Assembly (NCBI GenBank): GCA_040954595.2 | Contig: CM082594.2 | Span: forward strand, 9,490,296-9,554,295 | Length of the DNA stretch: 64,000 nt | Direction: 5' to 3' | Source: Balanoglossus misakiensis | Taxonomy: Eukaryota; Animalia; Hemichordata | Shown here: positions 17,501-52,789 of the stretch, one piece after another | Layout: each line of letters starts with the position of its first letter | Numbering within the stretch: position 1 is the first letter of the stretch | Program-made: the position numbers and the translations under genes | The notes under the pieces: generated by a model | The model's database searches: none | Seen by the model: the letters and a program-made list of their open reading frames with translations, nothing else | What the model was told of the DNA's origin: nothing

Positions 17501-20500
17501 GTTATGAGGGTTAATTTTGTGAAAGTGTTTCAATGAATGAGAATATCATCATTTCTATTTTTAATATTTTTCCCTGTAGCTGACAAGGAGTTAAACGTGA
17601 TCGACACAGATATAAAAGTAGATGAGCCACCTGTCGTTGAAGAAGGCAAACCATCAAATCCTATCGACTTTGACGTTGACGTGACTTCTGACCCAAGAAG
17701 TGACGACATCGATGGTGATGACTTGTGGAAAGTGAGAACACTACTGAGTTCGACTCCCGACGGACAAACAGACCGAGATATCCTCAGCGAAGATGTGTTG
17801 CCCCCAAGAGACAAAGACAAAGACCTGCCGTCGGACTCAACTATCACTTTTCCCGACCTGAATACAAATGTGGACATGAGAAACAAAGACTGCGATGAAG
17901 CCAAATACTTCTGTGTTGAAATGAGCAAAGATGACAGAGCCAATCCTGATTATGCCATGACAGGACGACCTGAAGATTTGGTAGACTGTGTACCTCTGGA
18001 CTGTAAAGAAGGTATCTATCATTTTTTCTTGCCAAATGCTGGTGCCAAATTTCCTTATTTTTGCACATTTTTCTCTCATTTTTCCTTTATTCCTCATGCC
18101 GAGTATTTTCAACTGTGAATATTCATCTGAACTTTATTTTTTCGTATTTTCCAGAGGATAAACCTGTCAATGTGGTCGAGACAGACCTAACTCCTCACAG
18201 TAATTATCCAGTCAAAGAGGGATCGCCGAACAACCCAGTTGATTTTGACGTACAACTGGAGTCTGATCCGACGGGAGGCGACGCAGACGGAAACAACCTG
18301 TGGAAAGTGAAAACGTTCACCAGTTCGACACCAGATGGTCGCAACGACAGAAATACGCTTGACGAGCAGACCCTGAGGCCGACTCAGTCGGATCAAGATT
18401 TGCCTGCCGGCGATTCCACAACCTTTTACAACCTGCGAGCAAACGTGGACATGACAACTCTGAAGTGTGGTGAAGTCGACTACCTGTGCGTAGAAGTCCA
18501 AAAGGAATACAATGCTGATCCTGATTTTGACTTGCAAGGAAGTCTTGTGGACTGTATACCCTTACGGTGCACTAAAGGTTTGTCTGTTGCCATGGGGACG
18601 CGTCGATTCTACCAGCCCCTCTGCTAGTGGTCATCTCCTCTGCCCGCTTAGTTTGGGTCTGACCTCGGCGCCTTCAGTGGTGTAGTTAGAGAGCCACACA
18701 ATATTGAGAAATTGGAGGAGGTTTAGGAGACAGGGTTTCCACTGAAAGGGCTTTCCTCCATCTCTGCCAATCGATCAAAAACGCTTCTGATGTTTTTATG
18801 TATGCTAGTATCTTGGTACAGCAGTTTGTGTCCTCTATATCATTGCTTTCCAAACTCTGATGAGCACTCTGGTTCCAACCCCTGAAACTTCTTTTCAGCC
18901 CCCATCCACTTTTGTCGTCTGTGAAATTGGCCAAAGGTGCCAGATCCTCTTGTGTCACTCCCATCATAGAATCACAGTTTCTACACTGCTGTAGACTGTG
19001 AAGTTCTTTTACCAGCTCCTAACCACTTGCAGCATACGGAATCGTGGTTCTGGTGAAGGTTCTTTAAGTGGTTGAGGCACCCTTTCTTTTCCATTGATTT
19101 CACATACGGAGGTCGCTCTTCCGGATCTGTAGGCCTTTCTGCATACATTTACATTCCCACCACTGACTTCACCACTGTGTCCTCAGACTATACACTTTCT
19201 GTCACTTAAATCTCAGACAGGTGAACTTTTCAGCACTGTGCCAAGTGGTATCCATGCTCGAAAGAAGATGGTCCTACTGCATGCAGAGATGATCGTACAT
19301 GTACTTTGTTACAAACACACACATCACACATTCCCCTCCCCCACAAACAGCTGAGTATTACCGTGCATGCCTCCACTGTAGACAACACAATTTTGTCTTG
19401 CACAACATTCCACGTTTAGTCACAACACAGGTTCCAACAACTGCAGCATCGATGGGCCACCGCTATTACTGTGAAACCGTTTTTCTCTTTACAGTGTGTA
19501 TTTTCAAAATGTTTTTAAACTGTTGTAAATCATTGATAAGTTTTTTGACTGTTTTCAGTTGTCACCTAATCTGTTTTGTCTTCTGCTTTTTTTTCATGAA
19601 ATCTGATTATCAGGAGGTGATACGGTGAGTAATTTCATCATTTTCAACGCCATAGTGATTTTCCTTTGCTGTTGTGATAAAAGTCATTAGCAAAAACGAA
19701 AATGTAGATAGATTTGTAGAGTGGACAAAGAACATTGGAATAATGATGATCAGTTAAAGATCAGATTTTTGCCATAACTTGCATGTGGTTTGATTGGCAT
19801 GATAATTTTCATTTGGATGGACTGGACAATGCCAATTTACTATTGTCACAAGCATTTTCATTTTTATTTTCATGAAGACATTGGTTTTAATTGGCATGAA
19901 CATGCATGTCTGTTAGAATGTCTTTTGATTGCTGTGAAAGTGTTTAGTGTTTTGCATGATGAGGCAGTTTCCTTTTAAACCATGTTGAGTTACTATGGTT
20001 ACTCAATCAGTTGCCATGACAAAATTGCCTTGTTTGCTAGCGAACAATCTTGTTGCGATGACAACAATGTAAGTTTCAACAAAAACGACAGCATTTACTT
20101 TGTGATCCATCTCTGAGCAGAATTTTATCAGCATGGCTATACACTCAAATTGATTAGTTCAGAAAATTAAATTTGATAAACATGACATTATTTTTTTTAC
20201 CTTAATTAGCATGATTTGATTAGCATGACGTTGATTGATTTGATTTTGCATGACAATGAGTTTTTCATCTTGATTAGCATGACATCAGTTGATTTGATTT
20301 GATTTGTTTTGACAAATTAATATTGCTATGACAACAATATAGCGTACAATTTGCATGTTATTGTAATTACAAATGATTGAAATTGCTCCAAGTTTCTTCT
20401 GTTTGATCTACATTACAATTATGTTAGTTTGATGGTTCTGGTATACGAAACCCCCTGGACACATCATATACGTTTAACCAAATCTATCCGAAACTCTGGG

Positions 20501-23500
20501 TAACTTGTGGGTGGAAAATGTCTGCATGGGAAGTGTCTTGGGGGTAACCGTCTTGATTGATTCAAAGAATATCTCCATGACATACACAATTAGGAAAGTT
20601 TGGTGCCATGGTAACAATGTGGTTCCATGACAACAAAATGGTTGCAACGACAAACAGTTTGACTGGCATGACAAAGGGTTTATAGGACATCAGTGACGAG
20701 GTTTGCATGGGGTTTGATTGGCATGACAACAAACTTATTTTGTTTGGCATGACAACAAACAAGTTGATTTACTGCACAAGATGATTGCCATGACAACATT
20801 CAATTAGATTGCCACAACAATGAAACATATTGATTGCCATGACAATTGGTCTTGTTTGATTGGCATGACAACATATACCTTTGATTGCTGTGACAATGTA
20901 CTATTTGATTGCCATGACAACATTTGTTTCCAATTATTTTATCCACTTGGCAGCCTGATCAAGGAGAGAAAGGAGATCCAGGTGAAGTGGTGAGTGTCGG
21001 GTGAAATGCCAAAAAAAAAAAAAAAAACTAAAAAAATATGAAGTCTGTGTTTTCAGTTATTGTCAATGGATAAAATATGCATACACAATCTCAGGTTGGG
21101 TGGTGATACGAGATATGTTCTGATCATTCTGTCAGAACACATTACTGCCCCAGTGCATTTAACTGAATATTCTTCCCTCTCCTTCCTATACACACATATC
21201 AAATCAACACCCACCTTCCCCAGACATCAAACCAAGACAAATATGCCAATACTTTCCCCTCATATCAAACCAAGCCTCAAAATACACCCCCTGAAAAATC
21301 AGATCATATCTCTCACCACATGGACGTGCACCAACCTAGATTGATATGTATGCAAACTTGCACTGCTTTGAATCACATAATGACATTTCTTGGGATAGGT
21401 GAAAGTTTATTACAGCATTACTGTTGTGCAATCCACATTGCCAGTATTTTACGTTTTTTTTACAAATTACATTCTCATAATTATACAAATTATGATACAA
21501 TGTGCGTTGGACAACAGTGTTTCTTTGAAAGATGTTGACCTCTATGTCTCTTGTCTTTTGTCACAAATGATCCCTCAGTCCTTGTCATCAACTCTATAAC
21601 CATTTCATCATCAAGTAATTCCTTATTTTCCAATTCCATATACCTATAGTACAACTTCAAATCAGCAATGCCTGCAACTTTTTTGATATTTTATGTCAGT
21701 ATTTTGCTCCCTATAGCAACATGCATTTCAACATGCTTCAAAGAGTAGAACATTTAATATACATGTATGGGGGAAATACAACAAATACGACATTCGATAT
21801 CAAAAAGTTACAGCTGGCTCCCATCTCTTTAATGTGTGTGAAGTATAAAAACCTGTTTATTAAAAGAAATCTGTCCTTACTAGAGAGGTGTCCTGATTAG
21901 AGTGGTTTCTATAGAAAGATGTGTTCTTTGTGGTTTCTTTGTGGGAAAAAATAATACCTGTTTCAACAACAGTTTGGTAGTACATGCTTCAATGTGCACT
22001 GCTGTAAACTGAAAGTTGATGTTTTATTTTTTCAGCCTGATGGAAACGGACCAATTGGTGAACCAGGAATACCAGGAGAGACGGTAAGTCTTTTCCTAGA
22101 TTTTGATGAAATCTGCCCTCATCTTTTTTCCATTAAACACTTGGGGAATGCCAAGTTTTTTTTTCCATGGAAAATTCAAAACATTGAGACAGCTTCATTT
22201 GTTTTAGCCATCAATACAAGTTCTTTATTCTGCAGTTGTTAGTCGTTTGAAATTTGAAAACTATCTGTGACCTGCAATATGACACAACAGCACTGAACAA
22301 CAATTTTAACATTTTCTGTTTTAGGGCCCAAGAGGACCAGCAGGTTCCAGAGGCCCATCAGGACCACCCGGACCTCGAGTAAGTAAAATCCTCTCCTGGT
22401 TTCGTTTTAACGGTATTTGCTCATATTTTGCTAACTATGTCAAATACATGACTGTACAATGTATGTAGTCAGCTGCAGTACAAAGCCTTCAAATTCTATG
22501 CAACTCATCTTAGAAGCTGCTTGGCGAATTAAAATGAATCACTTTGTTCGTTTCCTTTGCAGGGTGACCAAGGTAATCCAGGACGAGATGGCAGACCAGG
22601 TCAGCCTGGACCACCAGGCCCACCCGGACCCCAAGGTATTGGATCATCACCCTCAGGTGGCGGTGAGAAAGGTCCCGGATTTGGCCAAGTTCAACAACCA
22701 GTTGCTATGATGCCAGGTCCTTCTGGACCAAGAGGTCCCACTGGCCCTCCAGGTCCAAGAGTAAGTATACAAGGGGCAAAGTTGCTCTCTTTTTGGGGTA
22801 TCTTGGTTTCTTTTGATATACATGTACATTTATATTTGTATAAGTCATTGTAATATTAGAGTGCGATTTACAATTGAAGCAAATCTCACGGTTTTGGCTG
22901 GCATGTTGTAAACCACACAACTTGAAGACGCGTATATGCTCTGAGGCATAGCACCAGGCTAATTTATAAACATCGTCAGAGCCATTTTGCAGACACACCT
23001 TCACTAATTTTGTTCCACCATGAATTTCTCCAAGTCTAGCGTTGTTTTTAAACCGTTAATCTAGCAGGGAACATGTCATTAACAATGACTTTTTCCTTGC
23101 CCAACAGGGATCACAAGGTTTTGCCGGTCCACCAGGTGAACCAGGAGAGATGGGACCACCAGTAAGTATATTTTTCTTGAGAATCTTTTATTTGTTTAGG
23201 CATATTGGGTTATTTTATACCCGGAAAACTTTCATATTTTGATATTGTAATAATAACCTATATCAGTGAGGGCTTGTTTATGGGCCTTAAATATTTGTAC
23301 ACATCACAAAAGCGAAAAATGCAAAATTGATCAGTTTTTAATGATTTTTTTCTGTAGGGTTTGATGGGTCCTCGCGGTCAACAAGGTCTTACAGGTGATC
23401 CAGGTGAAGAAGTAAGTGAAATTCAACTTTTTAAAGTGTAAATGAGTTTAAAACTGTCATATGCACATGAGTGATGATTCAAGCTTTGATAATCATTGGC

Positions 23501-26500
23501 TTTGCATGTTACTGTAACATCGTGGCACTTTCACAGTTTAAATATATCCTGTTGCTTTCCTAGGGTGAACGTGGTGAAGATGGTAGACCCGGTCCCCCAG
23601 GTCCAGTTGGTCCCCAAGGTGGGCGTGGTTCCTCAGGACTTCCCGGAATGCCAGGACCTAAGGGTCACAGGGTAAGCTGTATTCTTATCCTTTGATGATG
23701 TGGAAACGTGAGCTTAAAATGATGTGCTTTATGCTTATTAAAAGTATTGGGTGTGTACCCGGTAATGCTATTTTGGATATGAGCCCTGGCGCTTTGTATT
23801 TAAAATTCACAGCGTTCAGTGTTTGCTCTGTCTACAAATGTAGTTTGTCTGTGCAAGGCATTCAGGGAAATGGGAACTTGTAGTTGTCACTGATGGTTGA
23901 TTCTTTTGTTTTTATGTCACCAGGGTTGGAATGGAAACGATGGAAAACCAGGTGAGGCAGGAGCACCAGGAGATCGGGTAAGTCCTAATTAACCCTCCCC
24001 CCCCCCTCCCACTACTAAAAGTTAGTTCAGTCCACATTGTTTGCAGTGGAATTTGTGGAGCATACACATGAAAATGGGGGGAGACTGAATTGCATGTCGT
24101 CTGCAGTATTATAAACAGATAATACTAGTACATATATAAATCACCAAAAGTTGTACTACTAATTTGAAAGTATCTGATTACTGTTACTGTCATGAACTTG
24201 TTGGATGTGCTTTTCCAATCACTTTGAAATGCTGTGAAGCACAGTCTCTGATACATTACCCTGATGTAGGTATCTTGAGGATCGTGACTGAAAGTTCACA
24301 GCAAAAAATTGTTTTTGTTTTAGAAAGTTGTCTTGATAAAAAGAGATGGTCTTGATGACAAGCTTACAGGATAACTGTCAAGTGTTTAATATTTTGATTT
24401 TGTTTGGTTACAGGGTGAAAGTGGTTCCCCTGGACAATCAGGTTTACCTGGACAACCGGTAGGTGCTGAACTTTGGAAAGAAGTTCATCCATGCAGATCT
24501 ATCGAGAAACAATGCCGTTGATTGGATTAATTGACTGCTGTGAAATCCTTTGATTGGGCCAATTTGTTGAAATACAGGATCATTTATGGGCCTTGGAATA
24601 ATGTTAGAATTTATGTAATAGTTTTCAAAAGGGATAGTATTTAATATAATGTTTTTGATACATTCACTTGTAGGGATCAAGAGGATTGCCAGGCGAAAGA
24701 GGAAACCCAGGAAGTAATGGAGAACCTGTAAGTAACAAATGTCCCACCTTAAGTTAGCTTTTATGCCTCTGTATATATGAAGATTTGTGATCATTTGATT
24801 ATCATCAACTTTAATACAAAACAGACTTGAGAAAAGATATAATCACTTTGCAAATCACTACCAGATTTTTCCCTTGGCCAATAGTCTGCATAAAGAGAAC
24901 TGTGATTGAAATATTACCCGGACAAACACTGTGATGTGTGTGATACTGACAATTAAGACATAAAATGTATCTTTTCTTGCAGGGAGCAAGAGGATCTGAT
25001 GGCCCACCTGGAGCTTCAGGACCACCGGTAAGTACAATCTGTCAACAGAAAGGGTTCGTTGTCTCACAGCTGAATGTGCCTTGTTTTGGTCTGACCTTTG
25101 TGATAATTAATCAACTGCATAATATTCATTCATAATGTTTGTACTAATGTTACTTGCTTGTAGTTTTGAATGAGTTCTTCGTGTCTGGACTGTTTTTAGG
25201 GATCACCAGGTCAGTCAGGACAACCAGGATTTCCAGGCAGTCCAGGAGCAAAGGGAGAATCAGGAAAACCCGGAAACACAGGTCCATCCGGTCCACAAGG
25301 TGCCAGAGGAGAGGCTGGTCCAGTCGGTCCACCCGGATCTTCCGGTCAAAGAGTGAGTAACGTTTGAATTTAACAAAAGCAGCAATGTAGGTTTACTTAG
25401 CAGTGAACAGTTAAATGTTTACTAACTGTTTTTTTATGTTTGATTTCTGTGAAATGGAATTTTTAATCAGACACCCTGGAACCTGTGTACATTAGAATTT
25501 TTTCAATGAATATTCTATCTCTCCCTATTAGGGTCCACCTGGTGTAAATGGCGTTCCCGGAGGCAAAGGTGAAACTGTAAGTATAAATGATCATTGCTGT
25601 ATCCTGTCAGTACGTCACTTTGTAATACTGTGCTTTATATCACAAAACTATGCTGTCAGATTATTTTGTGGTACTATTTTAAACTCAAAAATATTTTGGA
25701 TGCCATGCACTCATAAGACAAAATATATCAATTATTAATTATCAAATTCTCTCTTTCTTTCCCAGGGTTCTTCAGGTATGCCAGGTTCACCTGGTTTTCA
25801 AGGACCACCTGGCGCACCTGTAAGTACATTATATCTCTTCCTGATTGGCTCGATTTCAGATTTTTTATCCTCTAAGGATCACTGCATTGGCTGTTAAACT
25901 CAAAACTTGATTTAGTGGGTTACAAAGCTTGTACATGTTCAAGAATGGTGTGCTTTTTTCACTAACTTGCTAACAATTATTATTTTTCTTGTGTGATTTC
26001 AGGGTATTGCAGGAAGTGCTGGTCCAACTGGAGCCAAAGGTTCTCAGGTAAGCCTGAAATATGAACCACTTTAATAATAAACCACTGGTGCTGTGAATGG
26101 ATCCTTATCTTTGAAGTCACCGTAATTCACATTTCATGACAACATATTGACTGTGTTCGTCTCAAAAAATAATTGAAACATGCACATTTTTATCGATAAA
26201 TTTATGGCAAAACGATTGATCTTTTTATTTTCCAGGGAGACCCAGGTATTAGTGGAATGAAAGGAGAACAGGGCCCATCTGGTCTGCCAGTAAGTACTCT
26301 ATTGATTTTATGTAGATATTTATGACCTTACAAGAATTGAATATAGTCTGATCACGATTTCTGTTTGCATCCACCATTTTGAATTGATATTTTCGCTTGT
26401 TCCTCCATGGGTAACTTTAGAGGGGTCAGACTTGCAAGTTTCAGACAGAGCAAGAAGAAACTTTTCGTATTTTGTCTGTATATATAATCATCAGTTAGTG

Positions 26501-29500
26501 AATATAATCAGTGCTATGATGTGGTTGTGGTATTGTTTAATATAAATAAGTTTTTCAATATTTCTTCTAATTAAAACATAATTTTTTTCTCACCAGGGTA
26601 ACCCTGGTCCAAGAGGTTTGTCAGGAAACCCAGGAGACGATGGCAAAAGAGTAAGTCACTGCATGATTATATCAATAGTTCTCTCAACACTTCTTTTTTT
26701 ATTTTTCAGTATTTCTATTTGTATTTTATATTTCTTAAATTTTCATCTGCGATATGCAATGACAAATTAATTTTGTATTTTGTTTCCAGGGAGACCGTGG
26801 TGATCCTGGTCCACCAGGTGCAGCAGGTGCCCAGGGAGAATCTGTAAGTATAACTCTCTCACCACTATGGTTTAGTCCAAATCCATTGTTTTCTATGGTA
26901 AAGTTGGACCTCTTAAGAGGATACTCAGAGAAGATAATCAGAGAAGACTAGTAAATTTGTTTGACGTTACATTGTAACTTTCTGTTTTGGTAAATTACCA
27001 TGGAAACCACATCAATACCCTACATATTTTGCTGTTTCCTCTAGGGATCTCAAGGTTTACCAGGTTTCCCAGGACAGCCAGGTAGCGTTGGACCAAAGGT
27101 AAGATTTAAATAGAATCCTGTATGCAGATGTTATCATCAGACTTTTCACCGCAATCAGTTTAACGAATCCCCTATACAGGCAAAAACACATGCCTATTCT
27201 ACAGCCCACACTCCAACAACAAAACATATGCTTGACTTTCTATCTCTGTCTAGCTTTCTCATCCTCATGTCAATCATTTTGTCGTTTCCAGGGTGACACT
27301 GGAGATAGAGGCAATCCAGGTCCATCAGGTCTGAAGGGACCCGCTGTAAGTAAATGGTTTCTACCTGCTCACTAGTTTATACTTTAAGTAAAATTCTTTA
27401 TCCCAGATTCCTGGGTTACTTTAAAGGGGAAACATGGTTTATTCCAGATTGACAGTTTTCTGAAAACCAAAATGAACTCATTAGAACATAACAGTGAAAT
27501 AGTTGCGCAAAAAAAATACGCTAACATTTTTCTGTGATTTTGCTATTTATGGATGGAGACAATAAACATCCGACAAACATGGAAATAAAAGAATTATTTA
27601 GGTTACAATTTACACTTTCATATTTACAGGGTGACACAGGAAGACAAGGACCACAGGGTATGCCTGGACCAAGAGTAAGTTGGCTCACTGTATTATCACT
27701 CTATGCACGAAAATGGTTCAATTATTGGCATATATGAGAGAAACGGTGGAATTAACCAAAATTTTACAACACTGGTAATAGTCAGAATTGCAAACTAAAA
27801 CAGAAGTGGAAGGTGCAGCTGATGTATTTCGATGCAAATTGATTCACCTCAGCAGATGCGTACCAGATAATTATTTTTCATGAAACAAAGTTTGTGAGAT
27901 GTAAGTTTTGTTTGAAATCAGAGATTCCTCACAAGTTGTGTGTCTTTAATTGGTATGTTGAGTGTATCGCTTGAAATTTTGATATGGACGTTTCGTTTAT
28001 GTTTTGTCAGGGTATGACAGGCGCTCCAGGTAAAGATGGCCAACAGGGAAGAAGTGGTGCTCCAGGTATTCCTGGCGACGATGGACGAGCTGGAAGTGAA
28101 GGAATGCCTGTAAGTCCAAGTGATGATAGAGGAGCAATCAACAACATTTTCACTTTAAAAAAACCACATGCCAATAGTGCTAGATGTATGTGTGTATATG
28201 TACAATGTGTGTATGTTCCTTCTAACTGTAACATCATCTTCTTCAATTTTTCTTTAGGGTCTGCCTGGCAAGAGTGGTATTATGGGTATGCCTGGTCCCA
28301 AAGGTCCTCAGGTAAGACATCTTCAGAACGACATCATGTGGAACAATTATAGTCTGAATGTTGTGTAGGATATTCTCAATTATCCTCATCAGAATTTCAT
28401 TCAGTGCAGTTTGTAATCCGTTCTTTTCTATCATTTACTTATAAATCTGATGATATTTTTTTTTTCCATTTAGGGTGACCCTGGCAAAGATGGTTCAACT
28501 GGTCAAACAGGTCCCAGAGGAGCAAGGGTAAGGCAATAAATGTTAATGCAGATTTTGAGGGTTTATTATAATTACAGAGAAGTCATATGGAGTAGGTACA
28601 GACTGGAAGAAGTTCAGTATGCGCGCACAGTTCAGTATGCACTTATCGTTTATTTTACTCTGTTGTTTTCCGGTTGTATGTAGGGAGAGCCCGGCAAAGA
28701 TGGTGATCCCGGACTTCCAGGTTTGGTGGGACCCCGTGGTGCAACTGGTGAAAGAGGTGCTCCTGGTGCCGCTGGTGGTCAAGGTTCTATGGGTCCATCT
28801 GGAATGCCAGGTGCACCTGGTGAAGCCGGACCGGCAGGAGAAGCAGGTGTTCAGGGTGATGTGGGACCACCTGGTCCAGCAGGTCCAAGGGTGAGTGATT
28901 GGGTTTACTTGTCTATACTTTTGATATTCCAAAGTTCACTGTTTCAGAATTTTTGTTTCCATTTCTGATCTTGACCAGTATGTGCTGTTTTGCAGATATT
29001 GTGAGAAAATCTAGGGCAATTTGAGCAGTCGCTAGAATTTCTTTTTTATACCTCTCAATGGAATCTCAACATGAGGGATTATTTTCACTGGTTATTCGTA
29101 ATTTTGTTTTGGAAGACACCCCTATAACAAAATATGTTGTCATTAGACTTTGCCTGATTGGACGTGTTCTTAGTCAACTTATGTTTAAAATAAACTTGAG
29201 GTTCTGATATTTAATTGTCTCTGATTTACACAAAATTTATGATTATGTTGTAGGGCATCAAGATATTTTGTCTACGTGCTGCTTCGCAGCAATTCCAAGG
29301 GTAGTTGACAGTTGTCAATTCTCTTGCACCAAGCTTTGCAAATTTGAGAACACACCCTTTTTCTTTATTTTGCCAGTCATTTTAAATAGGACCAGCAACC
29401 TTGCTTGTGGGTTTGCATTTTCTGAAGAAGTCAACACAGTGTGATATGCAAACCCCTTGAACAGAATTCAGGTTTTATTTTTTCATTTTTCCCATTCTGA

Positions 29501-32500
29501 CGTTTAGGGTAGCACAGGTCAGCAAGGAGATCGAGGTCCATCCGGCGCGAGAGGACCTCGTGGCGCACAAGGTCCACAGGGTGACAGAGGAGATGATGGC
29601 GATAAGGTCAGTGGCGGAGGGTTATATACTTCTTATCATTCCACAATCACTCATATGTTGTTTGTACTGTTTGTACGTACAGGGTGAAAGAGGTTTTCCG
29701 GGAGACAGGGGGCGAGTTGGTGCCACTGGAAGACGTGGCCTTCCGGGATCAGCCGGAGAGGCCGGTGCAGAAGGTCAAAAGGTTGGCTAACAACTGCACT
29801 GCATGCACTAACTTTGTACACTGCATGTAAACGTGCATGTGCATGCATGGAAACACGATGGGAATACATTATGTCAAACTCGCATTTATCATTGTACAAA
29901 GTTTCAGGACTATGTTTTGGGTAGAAATTTTGGCCACTGTGAAAAGTTCCCACGTTGCACAGGACGGCAGCTAACCAACTAACCAGCAGAAACCAAAAGA
30001 CAGAATTCATTGAATACCAAGCGAGGACTGCACTGAGCTTCAGCGATCAAAAATATCCAACTCCTGGCTAGCAATATTTGAATCCAGCCATGAAAAGCGT
30101 GATTTTCAGAACATCAAACTTTAAGAACTGAAAATTGCGAAGGAAAGCCCACTGAAAACTGCATGTCTATTTTCAAAATTTATGAAAAATGAAAATTGCA
30201 TGTTGTCGTCAAGGTGAAGACCGAAACACAACCATTAAATGCATGTCCGTTGCCATGGAAAATAGATTACTGCATGACTGCAGGGGAATAAACGCCAATG
30301 AAAATGCATGTCATTGGTCAAGGGTACAATTCGTCTATCTCTCTTCCAGCTTGCATTATTACATTGTTCTTATAATGGTAGAGGGGTAAAACATTTTTAT
30401 CCACCAAACCTTTGGTGGACTTTTGCAGCAATATATCTATGCAACAAGATATGTTCAATCAGTGATGTAGATAGATAAGCTTTGTAAGAGTGAAGAAGAA
30501 ACTATAGTTGATACACAGAGATCAAAAACCAAACCTTGTAGCTGGTTATATGGCAAGCACAGCAGGCATTCGACATTGTGACCAGCTAATACAATAATAT
30601 CTACATCACTGATTCAATTATGGCAGACGGGCCTCGCATTCTCATTCTCAGTTACTTCTGGATGTTATTTTTCCTCTGAAACATTATGATTATGCATGTG
30701 TTTACAGGTAGAGCAGTAAGATTAAAATATCTTGTGAACTTTACTTCCATTGAAAACAGTGCAGAGTTACTTTTTTCAAATGTCTCTTTATAAATAAGTT
30801 TTCTGGTTTTTCTTCATTTTCTTTTTGATCATGCACTACAACAGGTGGTGTTCACTGCTTATGACTTGTCGCATGTTGTGCCTTGTCCAATACGGTAGTG
30901 TTAGTTGCACATTTAAAGTCTTTCTTCTTCCGTTTTCTCCTTTCTTGAAAACAGGGTACATCCGGTGCCCCAGGTCTACCAGGTAAACAAGGCGACATGG
31001 GAATCCAGGTTAGTTAGTAAGCTTTCATTTACAAGTAGGTTGCTTCAACAGATGGCATAGTTGTTTTGAATAGAGAACATATTGTATATCTTGATGACTG
31101 AAAAGTTTCAATGCTTTAGAATGTTGGGCAGATCATGAAGAGAGTCCTCTAGCCCAAAATCATACCTTCTTCCCCAGAGAAAAAAATACTTCAAAAGTTG
31201 ATGAGATCAGCTCTCTCTGGCCAACCAAATTGGCGTTTTTGTTTCATGTCTTGAATTGAGAAGTTAACTGACGGACATTCTACTGATTCTAATAATATTG
31301 ACTAATGTGTCTGAGGCATTGATGAGTAAATATTTGATTTGATTTTCAGGGTCTGCCAGGTCCACAAGGTCTAACTGGTGCTCAAGGTTCCAAAGGAGAC
31401 GCTGTAAGTCTGAATGACAGTCAAAGTGGAAAAAAGCTCTTGATCTTTGTTCAGTGGATGATTCCAAGCTCCAGAATATATTTAGACATCATTTTGCGGT
31501 GAATTTGAACATCTTGACAATCACGTAAATTTTAGGAATTACACTCAAACCAGCAATGTTGTTCTGACCAAAACAGCAAACACTGTAGTGTAAATCAGCA
31601 TCTGCAGTATACCGCAAATGGATTTTTTGTTTATGAAGTTCCACATTTTTATTTGACAGGGAGATTCAGGTGATCCGGGTCCATCCGGTCTGCCAGGAAG
31701 ACCAGGCAATCCAGTAAGTAGAATTTAAATTTTATGGAATTATCCAAGTGAGAGTTACAAAGCAGGTCTCATCTCCTGCAAGGATTTTGCGTGCCATTTT
31801 GTCTGGAATATTTTGGGTGTCTTTACAATACATGACAAAAAGTTGTCCTTTCTTCCCAGGGTCCAAATGGTCCAATAGGTCCAGCCGGTCCCACAGGTCC
31901 ATCAGGAGACAAAGGAGCACTGGGTCCAGCTGGTGCTCCAGGCCCAAGAGGTTCCAGAGGAGAAACAGTAAGAGCCTTTGTTTTCTTCTATTGATAATTT
32001 GCTTGTCATAAGGGTGGCCATTTTAGTTTGTTTTAAAGTTATACATGTATGTCTCCCATCATCTGCGCTTTGGCAAGCTGGCTGAAAAATGAAAATACTT
32101 AAAACAGCTATGTTTGCTAATTAAACTTGGTTTTGAGGGGTGACTCACAATCCCTCGGGGTTACAGACGTATGCTGTTGCCCTCATGGCCTGTCAATATG
32201 TGTATACTGATCACCAACCCATGCCAACCAGGCCATCATAAAAATGTCTGTTGTTTCTTACAGGGAGAACCAGGAGAGCCAGGCAGACAAGGTCAATCCG
32301 GAGACCCAGGCCCATTGGTAAGTATAACTACTTATTTTATGGCAGTGTTTCCTCACATATGAAAAAAAAAATCAACATTTTAGTGAATGTTAAATGATCT
32401 GGGGAAAATCACTAAAAGATGATCTTATTTTTGGAAGTGCCTGTTAATTTGTGTATTTCTAATTTGTATTTATAGGGAAGACCGGGAAGTCCCGGAAGAG

Positions 32501-35500
32501 CAGGCAGACCAGGAGAACCAGGACCCAAGGTAACATTCCCAAATCTCTGTCAACTGTCTAGTTTTGTGAAATGTTTCATAGCACAAGTGGAAAAGCGTCT
32601 GATTGTGATTTTACCTTGAGTAATGTAATGAATGTTTTTTGATTGGTAGGGTGAAGAAGGTGAAGCAGGTACACCAGGTGAACGTGGAGATCAAGGAGAA
32701 ACAGTGAGTACCTTTTCAATTTCTGAAAAAATCTGGTCTATTTTTACCATATAAAGGATAAAATTAGCAAAAAGTTACAAGTTTAACGATCGCTATGGAG
32801 ATAATCCCATGTTGACAATTTCTTTTATCAGGGTGACCCCGGTATTGCTGGCGAGAAAGGAGATAGAGGAGATCGTGGTCTACCTGTAAGTGCATTTTAC
32901 TTCACTTTCCTGTCCTCTGTCTGTGCCTTCTTTGCGCACTCCATTTTCATGCTTCAATACAATGCATTCCTGGAATGTTCCCTGATGTCTAACCACTCTT
33001 TGACAATCCTTAAAATGTCCTGGAAAATTTGAACTCATCCTTAAAAATACTGGAAAATTGATCCACAAAAACATTTGTGATGCACTTATTACATGCTCGC
33101 AACATTTTGAACTGAAATACTCCTGGAAACACCCCTGAAACTGGAATATGTTTCTTTAGTATTTTTTTTAGAATGATATGAATCATTTGATTGTGCTTTT
33201 TCTTTCTAGGGTCCACTTGGCGGTACAGGTCCGAGAGGTGTTCCTGGTGCTGAAGGTACTGTGGTAAGTTGAACAGTCTGTTTATACCTTTAATATTATG
33301 ATTGATCATCACAATGATCTTTACACACAAGAGATTTTCAACAGGACAATTCAGAGATACATTTGAGCAACTTCGTGAGATTTCTTTTCAGTGTTGGACA
33401 TGTGTCTAACAGAATGACCTTTGTTTTCTCTCTAGGGTCCAGTTGGTGAGAAAGGAGATGCCGGAGAACCAGGTCTAGCTGGTGCCAAGGTATGGAACAT
33501 TTTTTGTCAGACATAACCTGGTGGCCCGCCCTGACTATATACTTCTGCAGCTGGAAGGCTATCCTCAGTGAAACATAATGATACAAATGTTCTGTATTCT
33601 GTCTCTCATTTGCTGTGTTCCAGAATATGCAGATACGTGTAGTTCATCATCATTTATCAGTGCTTTTGAAGTACATTGTAGCCATGCAAAACTTCCAGAT
33701 TTGACATTGTTTTGTCCTGATTCCTTAGGGTGAGCCAGGTACAGATGGAGATCCCGGAAGACCCGGACCTGCCGGTGATCCAGGTTTGGAAGGACCGCTC
33801 GGACCAAAGGGAGACCCAGGAAAAGATGGTAAAGATGTAAGTATATCTATTTTTAACCATTTCTGTACAAGAATGAAAAACAAGCCTCAACAACATGTAA
33901 TCATTAATAGTTCTGAATTTCACCTCTAACTTTGTGTCTTTGTTCTTCATTTCAGGGTACACCAGGTACTCCTGGACCATCAGGTATTGTAGGAAATCTC
34001 GGAGGACCGGTAAGTCTGCAAAGTTTCACTGATGAAAATTCAGTTTTCGTAAACATTATCATGACAAGAGAGAACCACCGGTGGTGTGCGTGTTGATCTT
34101 TTTTAGCCCTTTTCTGATTTAATTGAGTCCAAATCATCGACATGATCCCAGGTCACGGTCGAGGACCTCACCATATCCTGTCACATCTTAACAGAGCATG
34201 TAGATCCAGGTTTTCTTTGATTCTATATTGTTCCATTCCACCTCAGCAATGCTATGACTGTGTGTGTAACTGTTTCCATTTTCTCTTCTAGGGTCCCGCT
34301 GGTCCCAGAGGTCTTTCAGGTCAAAAGGGAGAGCCTGGCTCAGCAGTGAGTATCTCACCTTTAGTCAAATGATCATTGCAATCCGTTCTAATATTATTCT
34401 GATTATGATAATTATATAATTATACTTTAATTATTTTACCAGGGTGAACAAGGCAAGAGAGGAGCTCCTGGTCCCGTGGGTCAATCTGGTCCAACAGGTC
34501 AATCAGGAGCCCCTGGTGCTCCTGGTAACCGTGGTGAACCAGGTCCAGAGGTAAGATTTCATTTTGGGCAGCTTCTTAAAGTTGCCTACTCTGTTGGTGA
34601 GATAAATGCTTTTGCTCCTGTCATACTCATGTAGTGTTGTGTGTATTTCAGCAGAATATGAATGAAAAATTAAGCGTTTGTCAGACCAGTTTTCGTTGAT
34701 AGGATGTAGCTTCCATCAGAAATAAATTTCTGTGGCAATGAAAGACTCTGTTGTTCCTAATTGTGTTTTTCACTTGATTGTAGGGTCCAGCTGGTCGGGA
34801 TGGTATCCCAGGTTTGGAAGGACAACCAGGTGGTAAAGGTGATCGTGGTCCATCGGGTGCCCCAGGTGCTAGTGGTATGCCAGGCCATATGGTGAGTATA
34901 TGCAGAAGCGTGGAATCTTAAGTTTGTCGCAAGATGTACTTCTGTTTTCAATCTTGCCTATATGTCTATGGTTACCGCATATCCATTAACTGTTGGATAC
35001 CATCAAGGCAACATCACAAGCTTTCCCATAAATCAAGCCTCAGTCCTCATCTTTGAGCTCCCAGCTGAACATAAGTTTAAATCTTCTTATTTGCAGGGTC
35101 CTCCAGGTCCAGCAGGCAGTGATGGTGCCCCTGGTGGTGATGGTGATCCAGGTGCTCCAGGTCCAGTTGGTCCAGAAGGTCCAAGAGGTGCAAGGGGTCC
35201 CTCTGTAAGTTGACTTGAATGTAACATTCAAACCACCTCAACCCCATCTCTACCATGAATGATTGACCAAACCTTGGCTCATTTCGGCCAAATTGCCACT
35301 TCAGTTGGGTTCTTTTGGCCAGGCACAAATATAGGCTACATGTTATTATACATGTGACATCATACTTTGTCTCTTTTCAGGGAGAAAATGGACTTCCAGG
35401 TCCTACAGGTGCGACAGGTCCAGCTGGTGCTAGAGTAAGTATAGACAGGATGCAATTCTTGGAAAAAAATCCTTATTTTTCACTTTTTTAGTTAATAGCC

Positions 35501-38500
35501 CCTGATACATGATCTGTTAACGTAGTACGTCGCGCCTCAGAAATCAGTTATCAAACTATGGAATCAAGATGTGCAGAAAATTAATCTGTTTTCTTCTTTT
35601 CTTTCTTTCTTCAGGGTACCAAAGGTCATCGTGGTTTCAATGGTATGCCTGGTAACCCAGGTATTTCTGTGAGTACCCACAATACATCAGTCATTTACAT
35701 TACCCACAGTGCATCAGTCATTCACACGGTTATCAAAACCGTTTTTCACCTGGGTGCTGTCATTGCACAGCTTCAACAATACCATTGAAATTTCCATTTC
35801 CAAAAGTGCAAAGATGCACTATGATTTGTCACAATTTTCACTATTCTGATTGGACCTAACACCTGTATTTTCATGCAGGGCGCTGCTGGTGAGAATGGTG
35901 CTCCTGGACCACCTGGTCCACCTGGGCCACGGGTAAGTCAATGCCTTTCTCTGTGTTTTTTATCAAAGTATACAAGCTCGATGAATTGTCACAATTTGAA
36001 GTTAACTAAAATATGCCTAACATCATACGTAGCACACATTTTATTCTTAGACGTGTGAAAATTTTTCATTGGTAGTGAACTAATGTCTTTTGAGAAAATG
36101 AGAGGCAACGACTCTTAATTATGATGTGTATTTTTTGATATAGGGTGAATCTGGTATCAGAGGTCCACCTGGAAGCAATGGTAAAGATGGACAGATGGGT
36201 CCAGGAGGTCCACCTGTAAGTGAACATTGATTGATTGATTTATTGATTTATGTGCATTTACTACATGTTCACCTCATAGATCACAAAAATTGAGTATTTT
36301 AATTGTTATCCATTTAATTATTTTCTAGGGTTTGAGAGGAGCTAGAGGTGACAGTGGAGATGATGTAAGTAAACGTATCTGAATATTAAAAAAATACTCT
36401 GCAGTTTCTATCAGTCCAAAACAGACATCCGGTATCCCAAAACTGTACAGTAAGAAACTTAGACAAAAATGAAGACCAAAAATTTCGCACAACTTCTTTG
36501 CAGTAAACCAACCATTTATCTAGTTTGTTTGCAAATAGCTCATTTTTTCTTGTTATCTTTTTTGTCCTTCAGGGTCAAGTTGGTCCCCCAGGTCCACCCG
36601 GTCCACCTGTAAGTATTATGTCTTTGCAAATTCATCACACAATGATTTTAGGTAGTATGCGTCTTGGGAACAGTTATGTTATGTTTAGACACAATTGCTC
36701 ATAGCAAAAGCATTTTACTGACGTAACCCTTTTCTGGACTTTTTTTTCTTTCACACAGGGTCCACCTGGTTCCGTGGTGAGTACGATTTCCTTTTCTGTC
36801 ACCTGCAGATTTTTAAAGTGAATTAAACCAGATATCCCCACAAATTTGTGGAGAGACGTTGGGAAACAAATCACATCAATTCAGTATCACAGAGTGTCTG
36901 TTTTATACATACTAGTATCTTGTAACCAATATTAAACACGTATGATGGTGAAATGTCCTATGTCATAAAAACATTACTGATTGTTATTGTTTAAAACGGG
37001 ATGAAAATACTAATCATTCGTACATCTTACAATGTTTTGTGCTTCTTTCACACAGCCTGAGTTCAGACAATATCCAGCTTACTTTTCCAACTACGGAGGA
37101 GTCAAAGGACCAGTAAGTGTGATTTCTTTGTAACTCTCGACACATTACATTTTCACCTCTCAAACTTCATAAAATAACAGCGAAATGCTTGAAATACAAA
37201 ACACGACTAACATGTTTTGTTTGGGTTTGTTTGTTCACTGTAGCAAGGAGACCAGCCACTTCCTGATGGTGAAGAGTTCCAAGCCGACAGCATTTCTCAG
37301 AAGTTGCACGACATCGAAGTTATGGCCTCACTGCAGTCACTTAACGATCAAATTGAGTCGATTCAGAGCCCAACTGGAACCAAGAAGAACCCTGCTAGAA
37401 CCTGTCATGACCTTGCACTCTGCCATCCAGATTGGCCAAGCGGTGAGTGTCTTAATTTTATCTTCCCTCTAATGCTTGCCTGGTTTAACACACAAATGCT
37501 GTCAGTCAAGAATTCATTGATTAATGTTAATTGATTATATTTGTTTGTTTGTTGATAGGTAACTATTGGATTGATCCTAACCAGGGATGTGCTGTTGATG
37601 CTATTGAAGTATTCTGTGACTTTGAAACCAAGGAAACTTGTGTGTATCCAAGGAAAGCAGAGGTATGTAGATGTTTGTTTTGAATATCATGGTTTTCCAA
37701 ATAATGTAATATTATTAATTAATTAATGTAATCACACAAGAAGTTAGCTGTAAACATAATTTTTTTGAAAATTGACCTCTCTGTTGTCTTAACCAAACAC
37801 ATATATATATATTTTTTTAATTTAATCCAGGCTACCCGTAAGAACTACTACACAGGACCGAGTAAATATGTCTGGTTTGGTGATAGCATGAAAGGTGGAT
37901 TCCAGGTATGAAAATGAATTTTAATTTAATTATAATTATTTCTTATATGATTCATTACCTTATGCTGATATTTTAACGCTTCATTGAAGTGTATTTACAT
38001 ATACAGTATCATTAGATACCTAAAACTCTCCTCAGATTGTGTTTGACATTCTCAAGACATTGGATTGGTCCAAATATTTTCCACCAACAACACTGACATT
38101 GGATTGGTCCAAATATGTTCCACCAACAACACTGCATCATGGGAAATATCACAAGAATCAGTGTTTGATATACCGGTACAGAAGAAATTCAAAACTCTGA
38201 AAATATTCTGAAAGACCTGACAGCTGCCGTCCCTTCAATCCCAAAAGCAATCAGACCATTTGAACCGCTTTCAATCTATAATTTACATTTTGTTGTTCTG
38301 ATTTCAGTTCACATACGACATCGAAGTTGTCCAGTTTACATTCCTTCGTCTTCTGAGTACAAAAGCTAAGCAAAACGTCACCTATCACTGCAAGAACTCA
38401 GTTGGATATTACGACGCAGAGAATGATAACTTGAAGAAGGCTGTGAAGTTCCTTTCAGACGCAGATGTAGAACTAGTTGCAGAGGGTAGATCTCGCTTCC

Positions 38501-41654: not shown

Positions 41655-44042
41655 CCTTTATAAGCAAGTGATAAACATTTCCCAGTGAAAAAAGTTGGTG
41701 TGGGGGGGGGGGGAATAAAAGCACTAAGTTTTAGGGATTTGAAGAAAAAGTTTTGATATAGAAGCTAGGTAAATATATTTGTTGCATTCTCGATCTTCCA
41801 GCCCCCCCCCCCCCCTCCTCTAATATTATCAAATTGGACCACCCATCGTGATGACCGTGACCCTAAGTAAGGTCATGTAACCCTTTCTGCTCAGAACACG
41901 CGCGTACACAACGCGTACACGGCTGTGTGGAGGGACCGACCGACAGTGCGCAAAAAATGGTTCTTCTTTCCCACAAAATGATAAATTTAGAACATTATTG
42001 GCAACTGTACGAAATACAGATGGTATATGAAAGGTTTTGGCTAGTATTTGTGTGCTTTCTTGCCCAAAGAGTTGAAATTTGGTCGTGGGCGCCCAGTACC
42101 GTTCACCGAAGTTAGTAAATTTTCTGAGCAGGGAAAGTGCATCGTCTGACGTTCGCACGAGTCGTTGGCTTGACTAGAGTCTCGCAATAAATCTCTGTTT
42201 TCAAGAAGCGCATCAGTCTGCCCGAACTTACAGAGACTTTGAGGCAAGCGAAGATGGGACACATAGTCTAAATGAGCCAATAAGAATCACTGTAAAGGCA
42301 GCGGGCGGCTCGATAAAGTTTGTGTAGGTTTCATAATATTGACAAATTGAACGTGACTTCTAATGAATGGGTTAAAAAACTGTCGTCTCTCTACCATTAT
42401 ATTCGCTATTTTGAAGATATTAATAAAAACTTTCAAATTTTGTCATAACCCCAACAAAAGGCATATGCACCTGTTTGTCTGGTCGATATTTTTAACGTGT
42501 CTACCTTTATGCTTTTACTTACCGGAGCCATTTCGGTCAAAAAGTCAAACCCTCGTGGCCATCTTTTCCTAAACGTCCGAACGACAATGAGCATGATGAG
42601 AAAAGTCCAGGTGGTGAATTGACCAATCACTGAGAAGCAAGTTTCCTTATTTGGCAACAAAGTTACTATCGCGTCCTCTCAAGCGCATCGTCCTTAGAAA
42701 CGACGTTAAAAACCGCTTAAAATGTCTAATTTGTCAATTTTTTGGTCAACATCGATCAATCAAATCACTATGGTCTCCCAAAAGTGGTGATAGAATACCA
42801 TAGTATTCTGTCTTGTCATTTGAGGAGACATTTGGTCGACTATATGCTTTCACCTTCATACAAAGTATGCGCATATCTATTGAAACTGTACTTATCTGCT
42901 AGAATATCAATTTTGGTATTGGAAAATCTTTTTGTTTTACGTATACATTTAATAATTTTTTTGGAGAGATGTTGCCAAAGTAAAAGTACATACTCATTTA
43001 GAACTTTGACGTCCAACGAGGGCGCTATTACCCATATTATGCTCTTGAACGAACTATAGAAACATGTACTGTAAACACAGCCTGCAAAAAGCTGACACTG
43101 TTGGTGCTGACAATTAAATTGCCTGACCTTTGGAGTTAAATTTAGCTGTGAAAAAGTCAATTAAAAACGTTGAATACCAGGCACTTGTCAATTTGCAGTG
43201 GAGGGCGAACATGAAACCATATTGATATATAGAAAATAGAAATACTTGAAAGTGATCATCAATATACACATAAAGTTCATCCAAGCAAGCTTGAAATAAT
43301 TCTCAGCTGGTTCAAGTATTTTACCTTTGAATCAAGAGACGTATACTCAAGATCCCTACAGTGCTTTGGTAAGAATTTGCTGCCCCCGCACCATATTGTA
43401 AGTAACACATCATATGGATTTTTCAAAGGCAAAACCAGGATGTGGCCTTTACTGTTTTCTGCTTTTAAAACAGTAGGCTCTCTGTCTATTCATTGATTGT
43501 ATAAAACACAAACAACTACAATACTTTTCCTCCAGCCTGCTTGTACCACTACAAACTACTATCTGCAACAGATGTTTGTTCTGTTACACATATGTCAATT
43601 TTTCCTGTTCATGCATTGACTTCATTCACAGTGACTGTGTTTGAAGTGTGCAGACTGTCATTCAAAACGCACAGAAAATCCCTCGACAAGTCATTGTCCT
43701 TCCTGTTTATTCGTCAAATAATTGTTACAAGTTCCTTGTGAGCATATGTCACCCAAAAACTTTCACAAAAGGTGCAATATGTTAACATTAACAACCTGGG
43801 CTGATAAAAACCTGTAACTTTCTGGTCAGGTTCCACATTCAGTTTTCCTGTTCAGTCAAGGGCAACCAAGGAAAAAGTGGCGTACATAGGTAAGTTGCTA
43901 TTTAGATGTGTCTCTTTAATTCATATTTTTAATTTTTGTTACTGAGTACATGATATATTGTCTTGTTTATTGTCTGACATTCTTGTTGTAGGAATCTTTC
44001 TGATCATTTTGTCATACTGATATCATCTACTCTCATCATAAG

Positions 44043-44859
44043 ATGATACGTTGCCTGGTGGCCTTAATCGCAGCTATTTTGGTTGTCAAAGGTAAGGAAC
44101 TAAAATATGCTGTTTCATGTTTGGCAAACACCAAAACCAGTGGATCTAGCCAGGAATAGCAAAATGTGCTTATTTCATCAATTAAAACTGTCAGACTTAT
44201 ATAATTTGAATGTCCAACATTTGCCTTTTCTCAGTTGATGGACAATGTTTGAATTTTGGTTCAGCCATAGCCCATGACCATTATCTGACAGAGGCTATTT
44301 GGGATGACTGCGTCACGGACATGGATCTGCCATATTCTGATTGTTACGACATCTGCTTTTCCAAAATGGTAATTAATTGTGACTTTACAGAATGGGAATG
44401 TTAATTACATAGTATGCACTTCGGATACCCATCTACATGTAGATGGGTGGGATGAGATGAGATACATAATGATAAATGAGCAAAATGTTAATGAGTTCGC
44501 AAGTCTAGAAAGACCATAATGATATAAGATACACAGAACAGCACAAGAAATTCTAGTTGCTGGAGTACAAACAAAAATATGTCCTAACTATTCTAAAACT
44601 TTACCACAACTGCATAGAGATGTAAACAATGGCTACTTGTTCGTTCAGTGGATGGATTAGGCCTTCAAGTGTTTTCTTTATTTCCATATTTCAGTGGTAC
44701 TGTCGCTGCACACACTCGACTGATGACTGTTTGGCCATCATCACTGGCAACGATGTTGGAACAATTCAAGAAATCTGCAATGAAGTATTTGCCAAATTTG
44801 AAGGTCCTGATGCAATACCTGTGCCACAATGTAACAGTCAAGACAAATGCTTTCCTTGA
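44043..44859 (+). CDS. Small secreted acidic cysteine-rich protein (115 aa, 10 Cys in the mature part), family unknown
   Basis: Exons 44043-44091, 44235-44368 and 44695-44859 join in phase to give MIRCLVALIAAILVVKVDG-QCLNFGSAIAHDHYLTEAIWDDC...QCNSQDKCFP*. Upstream UTR donor at ~43890 and AATAAA at ~45000. Confidence 0.8.
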
Positions 44860-46309
44860 AAAAAGGGAAGTTCGATCTTTAAGAAAATTGTGTTTCCATT
44901 TGATCCAAATTAGATATTAAGTATTGGTAGTTATTATTATTATTGGTGTTATTATTGGTTTAAATTTTCAATGTATTCTTTGCATGATATTTGTTTCCAA
45001 ATAAAATATTAAGAAAATTTATGATTGAAAGTCATTTCCTCATCTTTCTTTTCTCTTTTTGTGTGTGTGTCACAAATAAAAGCGACAGACATCGATATAC
45101 ACTATTAAATGCTACATTGTATTATCAAAAATTAACCATTAAGAATACAGATTGAAGATGTTAATACATCAAGTGCAGTACTTGTGTGGCAATGTCTAAT
45201 TCTGGAAATATTAAGAAGTGATATTTTATCTAAAGTTAATTTTTCATGTTCTTCTATCAAATATCGAAAATCTTCTGAGTATTATTGTCAAAAACAGCTT
45301 ATTTCCACGTAGCGCCTTATCTTTGGCATGTTTGTCATTTAAAAGAAAGCAAACGGTTACAGGTCACCAAAGATAAAATAAAAATTACATATCTACACAA
45401 AGACTAATTTCCTTACTTTAACAAGACCAATATGGCACTCTGAATATCACTGTTATGACTGAAATTTAATCAAAGAATCATAAACATGCGTTGTATGAAA
45501 TGTGAACTATGATATTTTGATTACGCTTATGTATAATTGCAAACAGTCATGAATGATCACAAGTTAAATGAAACCGAACTTGCCTGTCAAAATTCCTTCA
45601 CAGACATATTTTCCTAACACTTAAAAACTAATTGATTGAGAGATTGATTGCATGAATATCAAATGTAATTGGCAATATGCTGTCATTGCACAGTTGCTAG
45701 ACACAAATTCGACGACTATATTTGCTAGCATATACCATAACATCACATAGAAACAGAAGTAGATGTAAACAATAATTGCACCAACGGAAACATGGGATCT
45801 ACTGTACAATTAAAGGTGTTTGTATCTGAGCTATGATATTACATTTTGACCATGGCCCCTTCACTGAGAGTTCAGTCAAACATACACATGCACAGACACA
45901 CACAAGCACACACAACCACTACAAGAGTTGTTGAAATAAATTCCACTCATACCATCAGCTGAGTCATCCTGTCCACCAGCGGTGCCATCTGCTCAGGATT
46001 TACAAGATTGAGATTTGAACTCTAAACCAGCTACCATAGTTGAAAGTAAATATACCAATTGCGAAAAGATTCTAAATATGATGATGAATCTACAAGAAAA
46101 TGCTTCTTGATGACTGCAGACCAGCAGTCCATTACTCAATTTGATTCATCAACTGACAGGCAATATGTAAACGTTACTTCCTGTCATTAAAGAAAGAGCG
46201 AGCTCATCTCTTGGTCATTAGGTAATTAACCTTGAAAAAATTAAAGCCAAACATTTTCCTGTCAGATGAAGGTCTCTTCAAATGCCAGGTTCTGTAGAGA
46301 AACATCTGA

Positions 46310-46665
46310 CATCATTTAAATATGCAGATTTCTGTCACATCCTTCACCTATTGCCTCATATGGTTCACTTTTCACATGACTTGATGGCTAGGTGTCACTT
46401 AATTATTGTCTATATGGATGCACGGTGGTATCAACAGAACCTGAGAATTAATTATCACATGATGTCCACATGGCATCCAATTGTTATCATGTACTGTCTA
46501 TGTGACATCTGCTGATTGCGTCCACATGACGTTGCACTGTCACATCCTGATCATTTGACATCTCTGAGTTATCACATGCTGTCCATATGACATCTGCTAT
46601 TGCCATTCAAATTGTCCAAATGACATATTTGTCACTCGTTCTTGCACGTGAGCTGCTGCCATGAC
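46310..46665. repeat. Degenerate TGTC(C)ACATG/TGACATC-rich simple array
   Basis: Many variants of GTCACAT, GTCCACATG and TGACATC over ~350 nt. Confidence 0.55.
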
Positions 46666-46786
46666 AAAAATCATTGTTCATGGGAAAATAGTCATCAAAT
46701 GCCAGGATGTGAAGCATCTCTTCAGAAATTGTCCCTCAATCTGTCCATTAAATTTCTTTTGTGACCTCCGAGGCTTCTGCAACAAA

Positions 46787-52500: not shown

Positions 52501-52789
52501 TTCACAAAATGCTCTGAGAAGTATTTTAAATGTCTCCTCTCAATATCCGACTGCACAACCCAAAACATGGCTGGAGATGGAAACATCTTTTGTTACATCA
52601 TTATTATGATTCTAACGCTAAGAAATCAAGAATCCACAAACTATCAAAGAAAGAACAGTTTCACTGTAAGGACAGATACATTCCGCGATTTTGTTCCAAA
52701 ATTTCTTCCATTTTTTATTCCCATTCCCTTTCTCTGTACACTGCTTATGTCAAGGCATCATCGTCTTCAGTTTCAGATACAAGAGTTCC

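Follow-up and report, generated by a model that had tools for sequence, protein, structure and literature searches.

In a 64-kb stretch of DNA (contig CM082594.2, positions 9,490,296 to 9,554,295; hereafter the window), a fibrillar collagen gene carries 11 sense-oriented UGCAUG motifs in the intron that follows exon 31B, one of two adjacent exons of equal size (31A and 31B, or A and B) in the major helix. We propose that these motifs form an Rbfox-type downstream intronic enhancer that would promote exon B in a mutually exclusive choice between A and B, a reading drawn from sequence to which we assign a probability of about 50%. The helix of a fibrillar collagen is commonly regarded as the invariant product of a single gene. 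If the proposal is true, one gene would allow different cell types of the animal to secrete fibril collagens that differ in helix surface, and the locus would offer a simple case, open to testing, in which the helix surface is tuned by tissue. The UGCAUG downstream-enhancer code, together with an exon-pair layout of the let-2 type, would then be used on collagen genes of a deuterostome invertebrate. If it is not true, the locus still holds a clean, strongly non-random and strand-specific motif cluster that needs explaining.

Rbfox-type enhancers downstream of exons with weak donors are an established class of element, and what would be new here is the fibrillar-collagen context. Alternative splicing known in this family concerns the propeptides, and a review on fibrillar collagens cites splicing for the N-propeptide alone (PMC2852846). 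A full-text literature search found no report of mutually exclusive exons in the major helix of a fibrillar collagen, although it covered few subscription journals and is no proof of absence.

A sense-strand UGCAUG cluster downstream of exon 31B

The intron after exon B (29782..30954, + strand) is 1173 nucleotides (nt) long and thereby the longest of the 48 introns in the helix region, followed by introns of 617 and 436 nt. Its + strand contains 11 TGCATG hexamers (and 12 GCATG), starting at 29800, 29822, 29834, 29840, 29844, 30160, 30197, 30240, 30271, 30305 and 30693. Five of these form a proximal cluster (29800..29849; +19 to +68, counted from the first base of the intron), with three copies inside TGCATGTGCATGCATG; five more form a distal cluster (30160..30310, +379 to +529) at a spacing of 31-43 nt, and a lone copy follows at 30693..30698 (+912). 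On the antisense strand of the same intron there are three TGCATG, two of them overlap by-products of TGCATGCA. No GCAUG was found upstream of, between or inside exons A and B.

The first-pass annotation of this DNA had singled out the longest intron of the helix region, with 11 TGCATG, five of them within ~70 nt of the GTTGGC donor of a weak-donor exon 31B, and with few in the neighbouring helix introns. These statements all hold on recounting, and the motif enrichment that it proposed as a check is pronounced. The other 47 intervals between Gly-X-Y blocks, one of which (22644-22715) is actually exon-internal coding sequence, contain three TGCATG in 10,094 nt, so that 0.35 would be expected in the intron (Poisson P = 1.7e-13). 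Dinucleotide-preserving shuffles of the intron never reached 11 copies (0/5000; mean 0.86, maximum 6). An unbiased k-mer scan returned TGCATG as the top hexamer of the intron (P = 5.9e-11), an enrichment that persists after correction for 4096 hexamers and 48 introns, and TGCATGT as the top heptamer, which accounts for seven of the 11 copies. Across the 64 kb, the densest 1.2-kb stretch of the + strand for TGCATG is this very intron, the runner-up being a stretch at 19701 with seven.

Copies of (U)GCAUG in the downstream intron flank are known to enhance exon inclusion via Fox-1/Rbfox; they often occur in multiple copies, with more copies acting more strongly, and multiple sense UGCAUG downstream of a poor-donor exon are a published arrangement of Rbfox enhancers (PMC2777236). 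Repeated UGCAUG are described for fibronectin EIIIB and for NMHC-B N30, where the copies lie ~1.5 kb downstream, and the Rbfox splicing system has been conserved between nematodes and mammals (PMC2777236). The cluster described here, in sense orientation in the downstream flank and with its first copy at +19, matches this description at the level of sequence. Clustered short motifs in long introns can also be enhancers, and the hexamers might thus act on DNA, as transcription-factor sites in an intronic enhancer. We regard such DNA-level action as very improbable: it sits poorly with the strand bias (11 sense against three antisense copies, two of those overlaps) and with a cluster that begins 19 nt past a splice donor, and no transcription factor with a matching site could be named.

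Repeat unit or retained hexamer

The cluster could instead be a functionless by-product of local slippage or duplication in an intron that is long by chance, made up of a TGCA-type microsatellite close to the donor and, from about +380 to +530, a short tandem unit that has decayed. Three of the 11 copies lie in TGCATGTGCATGCATG, and three distal copies (the D2 and D8 families) share a TGAAAA(Y) prefix; local duplication or slippage has therefore contributed to the cluster. In addition, the other GCATG-rich stretch of the gene (19701-20930) is clearly a degenerate tandem array. Against this origin as a full explanation, TRF (Tandem Repeats Finder) detects no tandem array in the intron, even at a score of 30, and adjacency to the weakest of 49 donors would have to be coincidence. 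All 11 hexamers are perfect and the intron holds only four one-mismatch variants, while the ten positions on each side of the hexamer are heterogeneous, except for a T after it (7/11) and the shared prefix. A decaying repeat would show the opposite, conserved flanks around degenerate cores; the pattern suggests that the hexamer itself, rather than a repeat unit, is what is kept. On balance, we consider a functionless origin unlikely.

The first-pass annotation had also allowed that the motifs might belong to a dispersed repeat family, an objection that is not upheld within the window: self-BLAST finds no second copy of the intron and returns only the intron's own inverted repeat, which is free of the motif. 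Nor does the region 28800-31400 match any Rfam family at E values up to 1.

The inverted repeat consists of two 20-nt arms (30454-30473 and 30598-30617) that are 95% complementary and 124 nt apart. The 191-nt region around them folds better than shuffled sequences (z = -3.0; 1/200 shuffles equal), contains no TGCATG, has no Rfam match and has no further copy in the window. It may be a small foldback or an insertion resembling a miniature inverted-repeat transposable element (MITE).

Two other candidate structures were rejected. A hairpin with arms at 29810-23 and 29890-903, in which the proximal motifs would be exposed, has a z of -0.38, with 67/200 shuffles folding equally well. Pairing of 29969-29984 with the donor of the exon at 30955-31008 reaches -17.1 kcal/mol, a value equalled by 26% of 300 mononucleotide-shuffled introns.

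The exon pair and its splice sites

Exon 31A (29508..29606, +) and exon 31B (29683..29781, +) are adjacent, both 99 nt long and both in phase 0. Each encodes 11 Gly-X-Y triplets, ending in GDK in A and in GQK in B, and each begins with an intact Gly codon and ends with an intact Y codon. The two are separated by an intron of 76 nt (29607..29682, +; no GCATG), which is the shortest of the 48, the next shortest having 97 nt (21 nt more), and the two longest introns flank the pair: the 1173-nt intron after B and a 617-nt intron upstream of A (28891..29507, +; no TGCATG or GCATG). Splicing from either A or B would lead to the acceptor of the next constitutive helix exon, a 54-nt exon at 30955..31008 (+) with the donor CAG/GTTAGT. 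The donor of exon B (AAG/GTTGGC, with GTTGGC at 29782..29787, +) scores -0.79, the lowest of the 49 helix-region donors, whose median is 9.68, and the donor of exon A (AAG/GTCAGT, after 29606, +) is the fourth weakest. Exon B thus reads as a regulated exon, because it has the weakest donor of all and its neighbour the fourth weakest. In C. elegans, exons verified as mutually exclusive have splice sites that are weaker and neighbouring introns that are longer, and UGCAUG is present in 11/29 of the worm's mutually exclusive clusters (PMC4165533).

At the protein level, A and B share 16/33 residues, 11 of which are Gly; the 5/22 identities at non-Gly positions rank within the highest 5-9% of 317 in-register windows, marginally above background, where 6/981 residues of the background derive from an 18-nt exon read one base off (36760-36777). 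At the nucleotide level, 53/99 positions are shared. Despite this divergence from A, exon B has kept 11/11 Gly codons and both splice boundaries, which argues that it is in use rather than dead.

Two further sequence elements lie close to exon B. Just upstream of its acceptor, inside the 76-nt intron, TGTTTGTAC occurs twice in tandem (29659-29676, +), a GU-rich element of the type bound by CELF/UNC-75-type factors; such factors act from the intervening intron in unc-32 (PMC4165533). Downstream of exon B, 45 nt into the intron, GTAAAC (29826-29832, +) overlaps the second UGCAUG. Splicing from this site would add 15 in-frame codons that are not Gly-X-Y, and it is at most a decoy site.

Helix length and register

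Helix length bears directly on whether A and B are used together. Besides the Gly-X-Y blocks, we found an extra helix micro-exon of 18 nt (36759-36776, +; GPPGSV) with a strong acceptor and a GTGAGT donor. Including this micro-exon, the major helix without A and B has 981 amino acids (aa). One 99-nt exon adds 33 aa and gives 1014 aa, therefore exactly the 338 triplets of the prototypal fibrillar helix (PMC2852846), while both exons together give 1047 aa or 349 triplets. The helix of starfish SURF-collagens measures 1011 aa in 12/12 named entries examined; this comparison comprised 14 proteins, the two others being a partial model from fish and an unnamed member that lacks Gly-X-Y runs. The exon sizes presumably run in register with those of vertebrate COL1A1 as far as its 99-bp exon 31; past that exon, they do so only when a single member of the A/B pair is counted.

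Both exons might nevertheless be constitutive parts of a 349-triplet helix, with the UGCAUG cluster serving as a constitutive or quantitative enhancer that offsets the poor GTTGGC donor. A and B are in frame together, both have perfect Gly-X-Y repeats and AG/GT boundaries, and their similarity is weak, all as such a helix would have it. Its 1047 aa, however, would depart from the 338-triplet prototype and from the 1011 aa of all 12 starfish chains, while the length is exactly 1014 aa with one exon, and the 76-nt intron lies 21 nt below any other. Joint constitutive use of A and B is, in our view, distinctly unlikely.

Counted with one of the pair, the A/B stretch covers helix residues 496-528, where exon B places GFPGDR at residues 499-504 and exon A has GQQGDR. 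The GFOGER integrin site in alpha1(I) lies at 502-507 (PMC8585793), one triplet away, which supports a positional homology of the exon B sequence. We did not adopt GFPGDR as an integrin site, as GFOGDR peptides show no activity towards the alpha1 I domain of vertebrates (PMC3406685). Aligning the helix by position with other collagens gave no indication as to which of A and B is ancestral, and no intact vertebrate clade-A chain with a GFPGER stretch was present among the compared proteins.

CUAAC motifs as candidate STAR sites

A STAR/QKI response element consists of an ACUAAY core and a UAAY half-site within ~20 nt. The intron after exon B has four CTAAC, all within its first 203 nt and arranged in two pairs that both fit this bipartite definition as sequence matches. 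The first pair (29787..29812, +) has copies at 29787 and 29808, the second being ACUAAC, and flanks the first UGCAUG; the other is a candidate bipartite site, CUAAC-CAA-CUAAC (29971..29983, +), with CTAAC at 29971 and ACTAAC at 29978-29983. The four copies compare with 0.71-1.22 expected over the whole intron, for a nominal P of 0.006-0.036; a test confined to the first 203 nt is post hoc. For ACTAAC, the two copies in the intron (29807 and 29978) compare with a local expectation of 0.17 (P = 0.013), while the whole window has 27 against 32.4 expected, i.e. no enrichment.

We judge it improbable that regulation falls mainly to a STAR/QKI-type protein on these pairs (29787/29808 and 29971/29979), with UGCAUG secondary. 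Such a role would draw on the position of all four CUAAC near the donor, in pairs 21 and 8 nt apart, and on the nematode STAR protein ASD-2, which binds CUAAC repeats (PMC3469465) and acts downstream of let-2 exon 10 (PMC4165533). The enrichment of CUAAC is modest, though, and that of UGCAUG is stronger by many orders of magnitude. The two ACTAAC noted in the first-pass annotation are thus both present, while the QKI role that it attached to them stands on far weaker ground than the Rbfox one.

A proposed switch between exons A and B

In the model that we favour, an Rbfox homologue would bind the UGCAUG copies downstream of exon B and strengthen its very weak donor, so that B, and not A, would be joined to the next exon in cells expressing the factor. 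Where the factor is missing, exon A, with its better donor, would win and B would be skipped. The two exons would be used in a mutually exclusive manner, with the 76-nt intron hindering the joining of A to B, possibly as a steric bar, and the four nearby CUAAC might add a STAR/QKI-type co-input. A choice between A and B is proposed because the two form a same-size, phase-0 pair, with the shortest intron between them, the two longest outside them, and 338 triplets with one exon included. The regulated A/B choice put forward in the first-pass annotation thereby gains from the anatomy of the exon pair, from the triplet arithmetic and from a layout that matches published Rbfox enhancers; its STAR component is the part that fares less well. 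More tentatively, and by analogy, an Rbfox (plus STAR) code laid out as in let-2 may swap 11 triplets of the major helix (residues 496-528) by mutually exclusive splicing.

Several observations weigh against such a switch. In related SURF-collagens of starfish, the helix is identical in 5/5 isoform pairs, and no A/B choice is annotated there. The similarity of A and B, at 5/22 non-Gly identities, exceeds background only marginally. With an exon length divisible by 3, transcripts that contain both exons or neither would keep the reading frame, and the 76-nt intron may be spliceable in this animal. Finally, the cluster derives in part from local duplication, with three proximal motifs in a microsatellite-like sequence and three distal ones behind a common prefix.

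The host gene

The + strand of the window contains one large eukaryotic gene. Its helix region comprises 49 Gly-X-Y blocks (22048-36608, +), each with an intact Gly codon right after AG and ending before GT, and the exon sizes of 54, 45, 99 and 108 nt follow the fibrillar collagen pattern. Two Pfam domains are recognised: VWC at 14080-14325 (E = 3.2e-11), and COLFI, to which two downstream exons match (E = 3.1e-15 and 1.3e-23). Together with the exon sizes, VWC, COLFI and an uninterrupted major helix of ~338 triplets are the features of clade-A fibrillar collagens. Between VWC and the minor helix lie six open frames of ~146 aa with four Cys each (14849-18624), SURF-like modules that match no Pfam model; a SURF-type N-propeptide has been described for sea-urchin chains (PMC2852846). 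When one module was used as a query against 1.84 billion representatives, Ptychodera flava came out on top (52%), followed by weaker matches in Glandiceps (37%), Saccoglossus (36%) and an Acanthaster collagen (32%) that itself carries seven such modules. From the domains, helix exon sizes, SURF modules and module matches, the gene is therefore a clade-A fibrillar collagen gene with a SURF-type N-propeptide, most probably from an ambulacrarian of the enteropneust hemichordates.

Other parts of the protein were less telling. The best named matches of the C-propeptide exon are vertebrate COL2A1/COL1 (60-66%), in a search of targets of up to 2000 aa that returned vertebrates only. With a starfish C-propeptide as the query, only starfish paralogues and fish were returned, and a homologue search with a 69-aa helix exon gave only low-complexity collagen matches of at most 58% identity.

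Two of the six SURF-like module exons (16835-17329 and 17537-18013, +) encode nearly identical protein sequences, suggesting that an exon of the N-propeptide was recently duplicated in tandem. In starfish relatives, isoforms can be one module apart (143-155 aa).

The runner-up stretch noted above (19701-20930, +), the second sense-strand GCATG-rich stretch in the gene, has 17 GCATG and seven TGCATG in 1.2 kb. It is a degenerate tandem array with a 24-29-nt period and units such as TGATTGSCATGACAAC, and shortly after its end follows a candidate 36-nt exon (20953-20988; 12 aa) with good splice sites. Without this candidate exon, the minor helix has 57 aa, as in the starfish relatives. With GCAUG lying upstream, this micro-exon would be predicted to be repressed by Rbfox.

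The stop codon of the gene lies near 38942. In the 25 kb beyond it (39000-64000), no second gene was recognised, and six long open frames downstream of the stop (41829-57706) gave no Pfam matches.

Comparison with known splicing systems

In overall architecture, the gene resembles the ambulacrarian SURF-module fibrillar collagens (the sea-urchin 2-alpha type, and starfish XP_022088426 and its relatives), with which it shares the order of VWC, four-Cys SURF-like modules, a 57-aa minor helix, a major helix of ~338 triplets and COLFI (PMC2852846). It would differ from them in what is spliced: known or annotated alternative splicing in these genes removes SURF modules (differences of 65-155 aa), and the starfish isoforms differ only outside the helix.

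Selection of one of two adjacent exons with the help of UGCAUG is described for egl-15 5A/5B, FGFR2 IIIb/IIIc, unc-32 7a/7b and alpha-actinin NM/SM (PMC4165533, PMC2777236, PMC2880598). In egl-15, FGFR2 and alpha-actinin, Rbfox mainly represses from upstream or exonic sites, whereas the present gene has no GCAUG in such positions. For unc-32, binding by the RBFOX family is described in the downstream intron, as we propose here (PMC4165533, PMC2777236, PMC2880598).

Fibronectin EIIIB is likewise an exon of an extracellular-matrix gene with many UGCAUG over several hundred nt downstream, through which Fox-1 promotes inclusion (PMC2777236). It is a cassette exon rather than one of a pair, and its motifs are conserved among vertebrates and experimentally tested, whereas the present cluster is a predicted enhancer.

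The C. elegans let-2 gene, which encodes the alpha2(IV) collagen, differs in that it specifies a basement-membrane type IV chain and not a fibrillar one, and in that a STAR protein acts through CUAAC repeats (PMC3469465), where UGCAUG dominates here. Its intervening intron of 30 nt is below the worm minimal size (PMC4165533), a relation that may not hold for the 76 nt of the present gene. In other respects the two genes are laid out alike. Both are collagen genes with a pair of similar-sized exons whose lengths are multiples of three (exons 9/10 of 108/111 nt in let-2, 99/99 nt here) and with a very short intron in between (76 nt here, the gene's shortest), and in both a weak donor follows the downstream exon, GC in let-2 and GTTGGC here (PMC4165533). 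The STAR protein ASD-2, bound in the intron beyond the downstream exon of let-2, promotes that exon (PMC4165533), and the candidate sites of the present gene are placed likewise.

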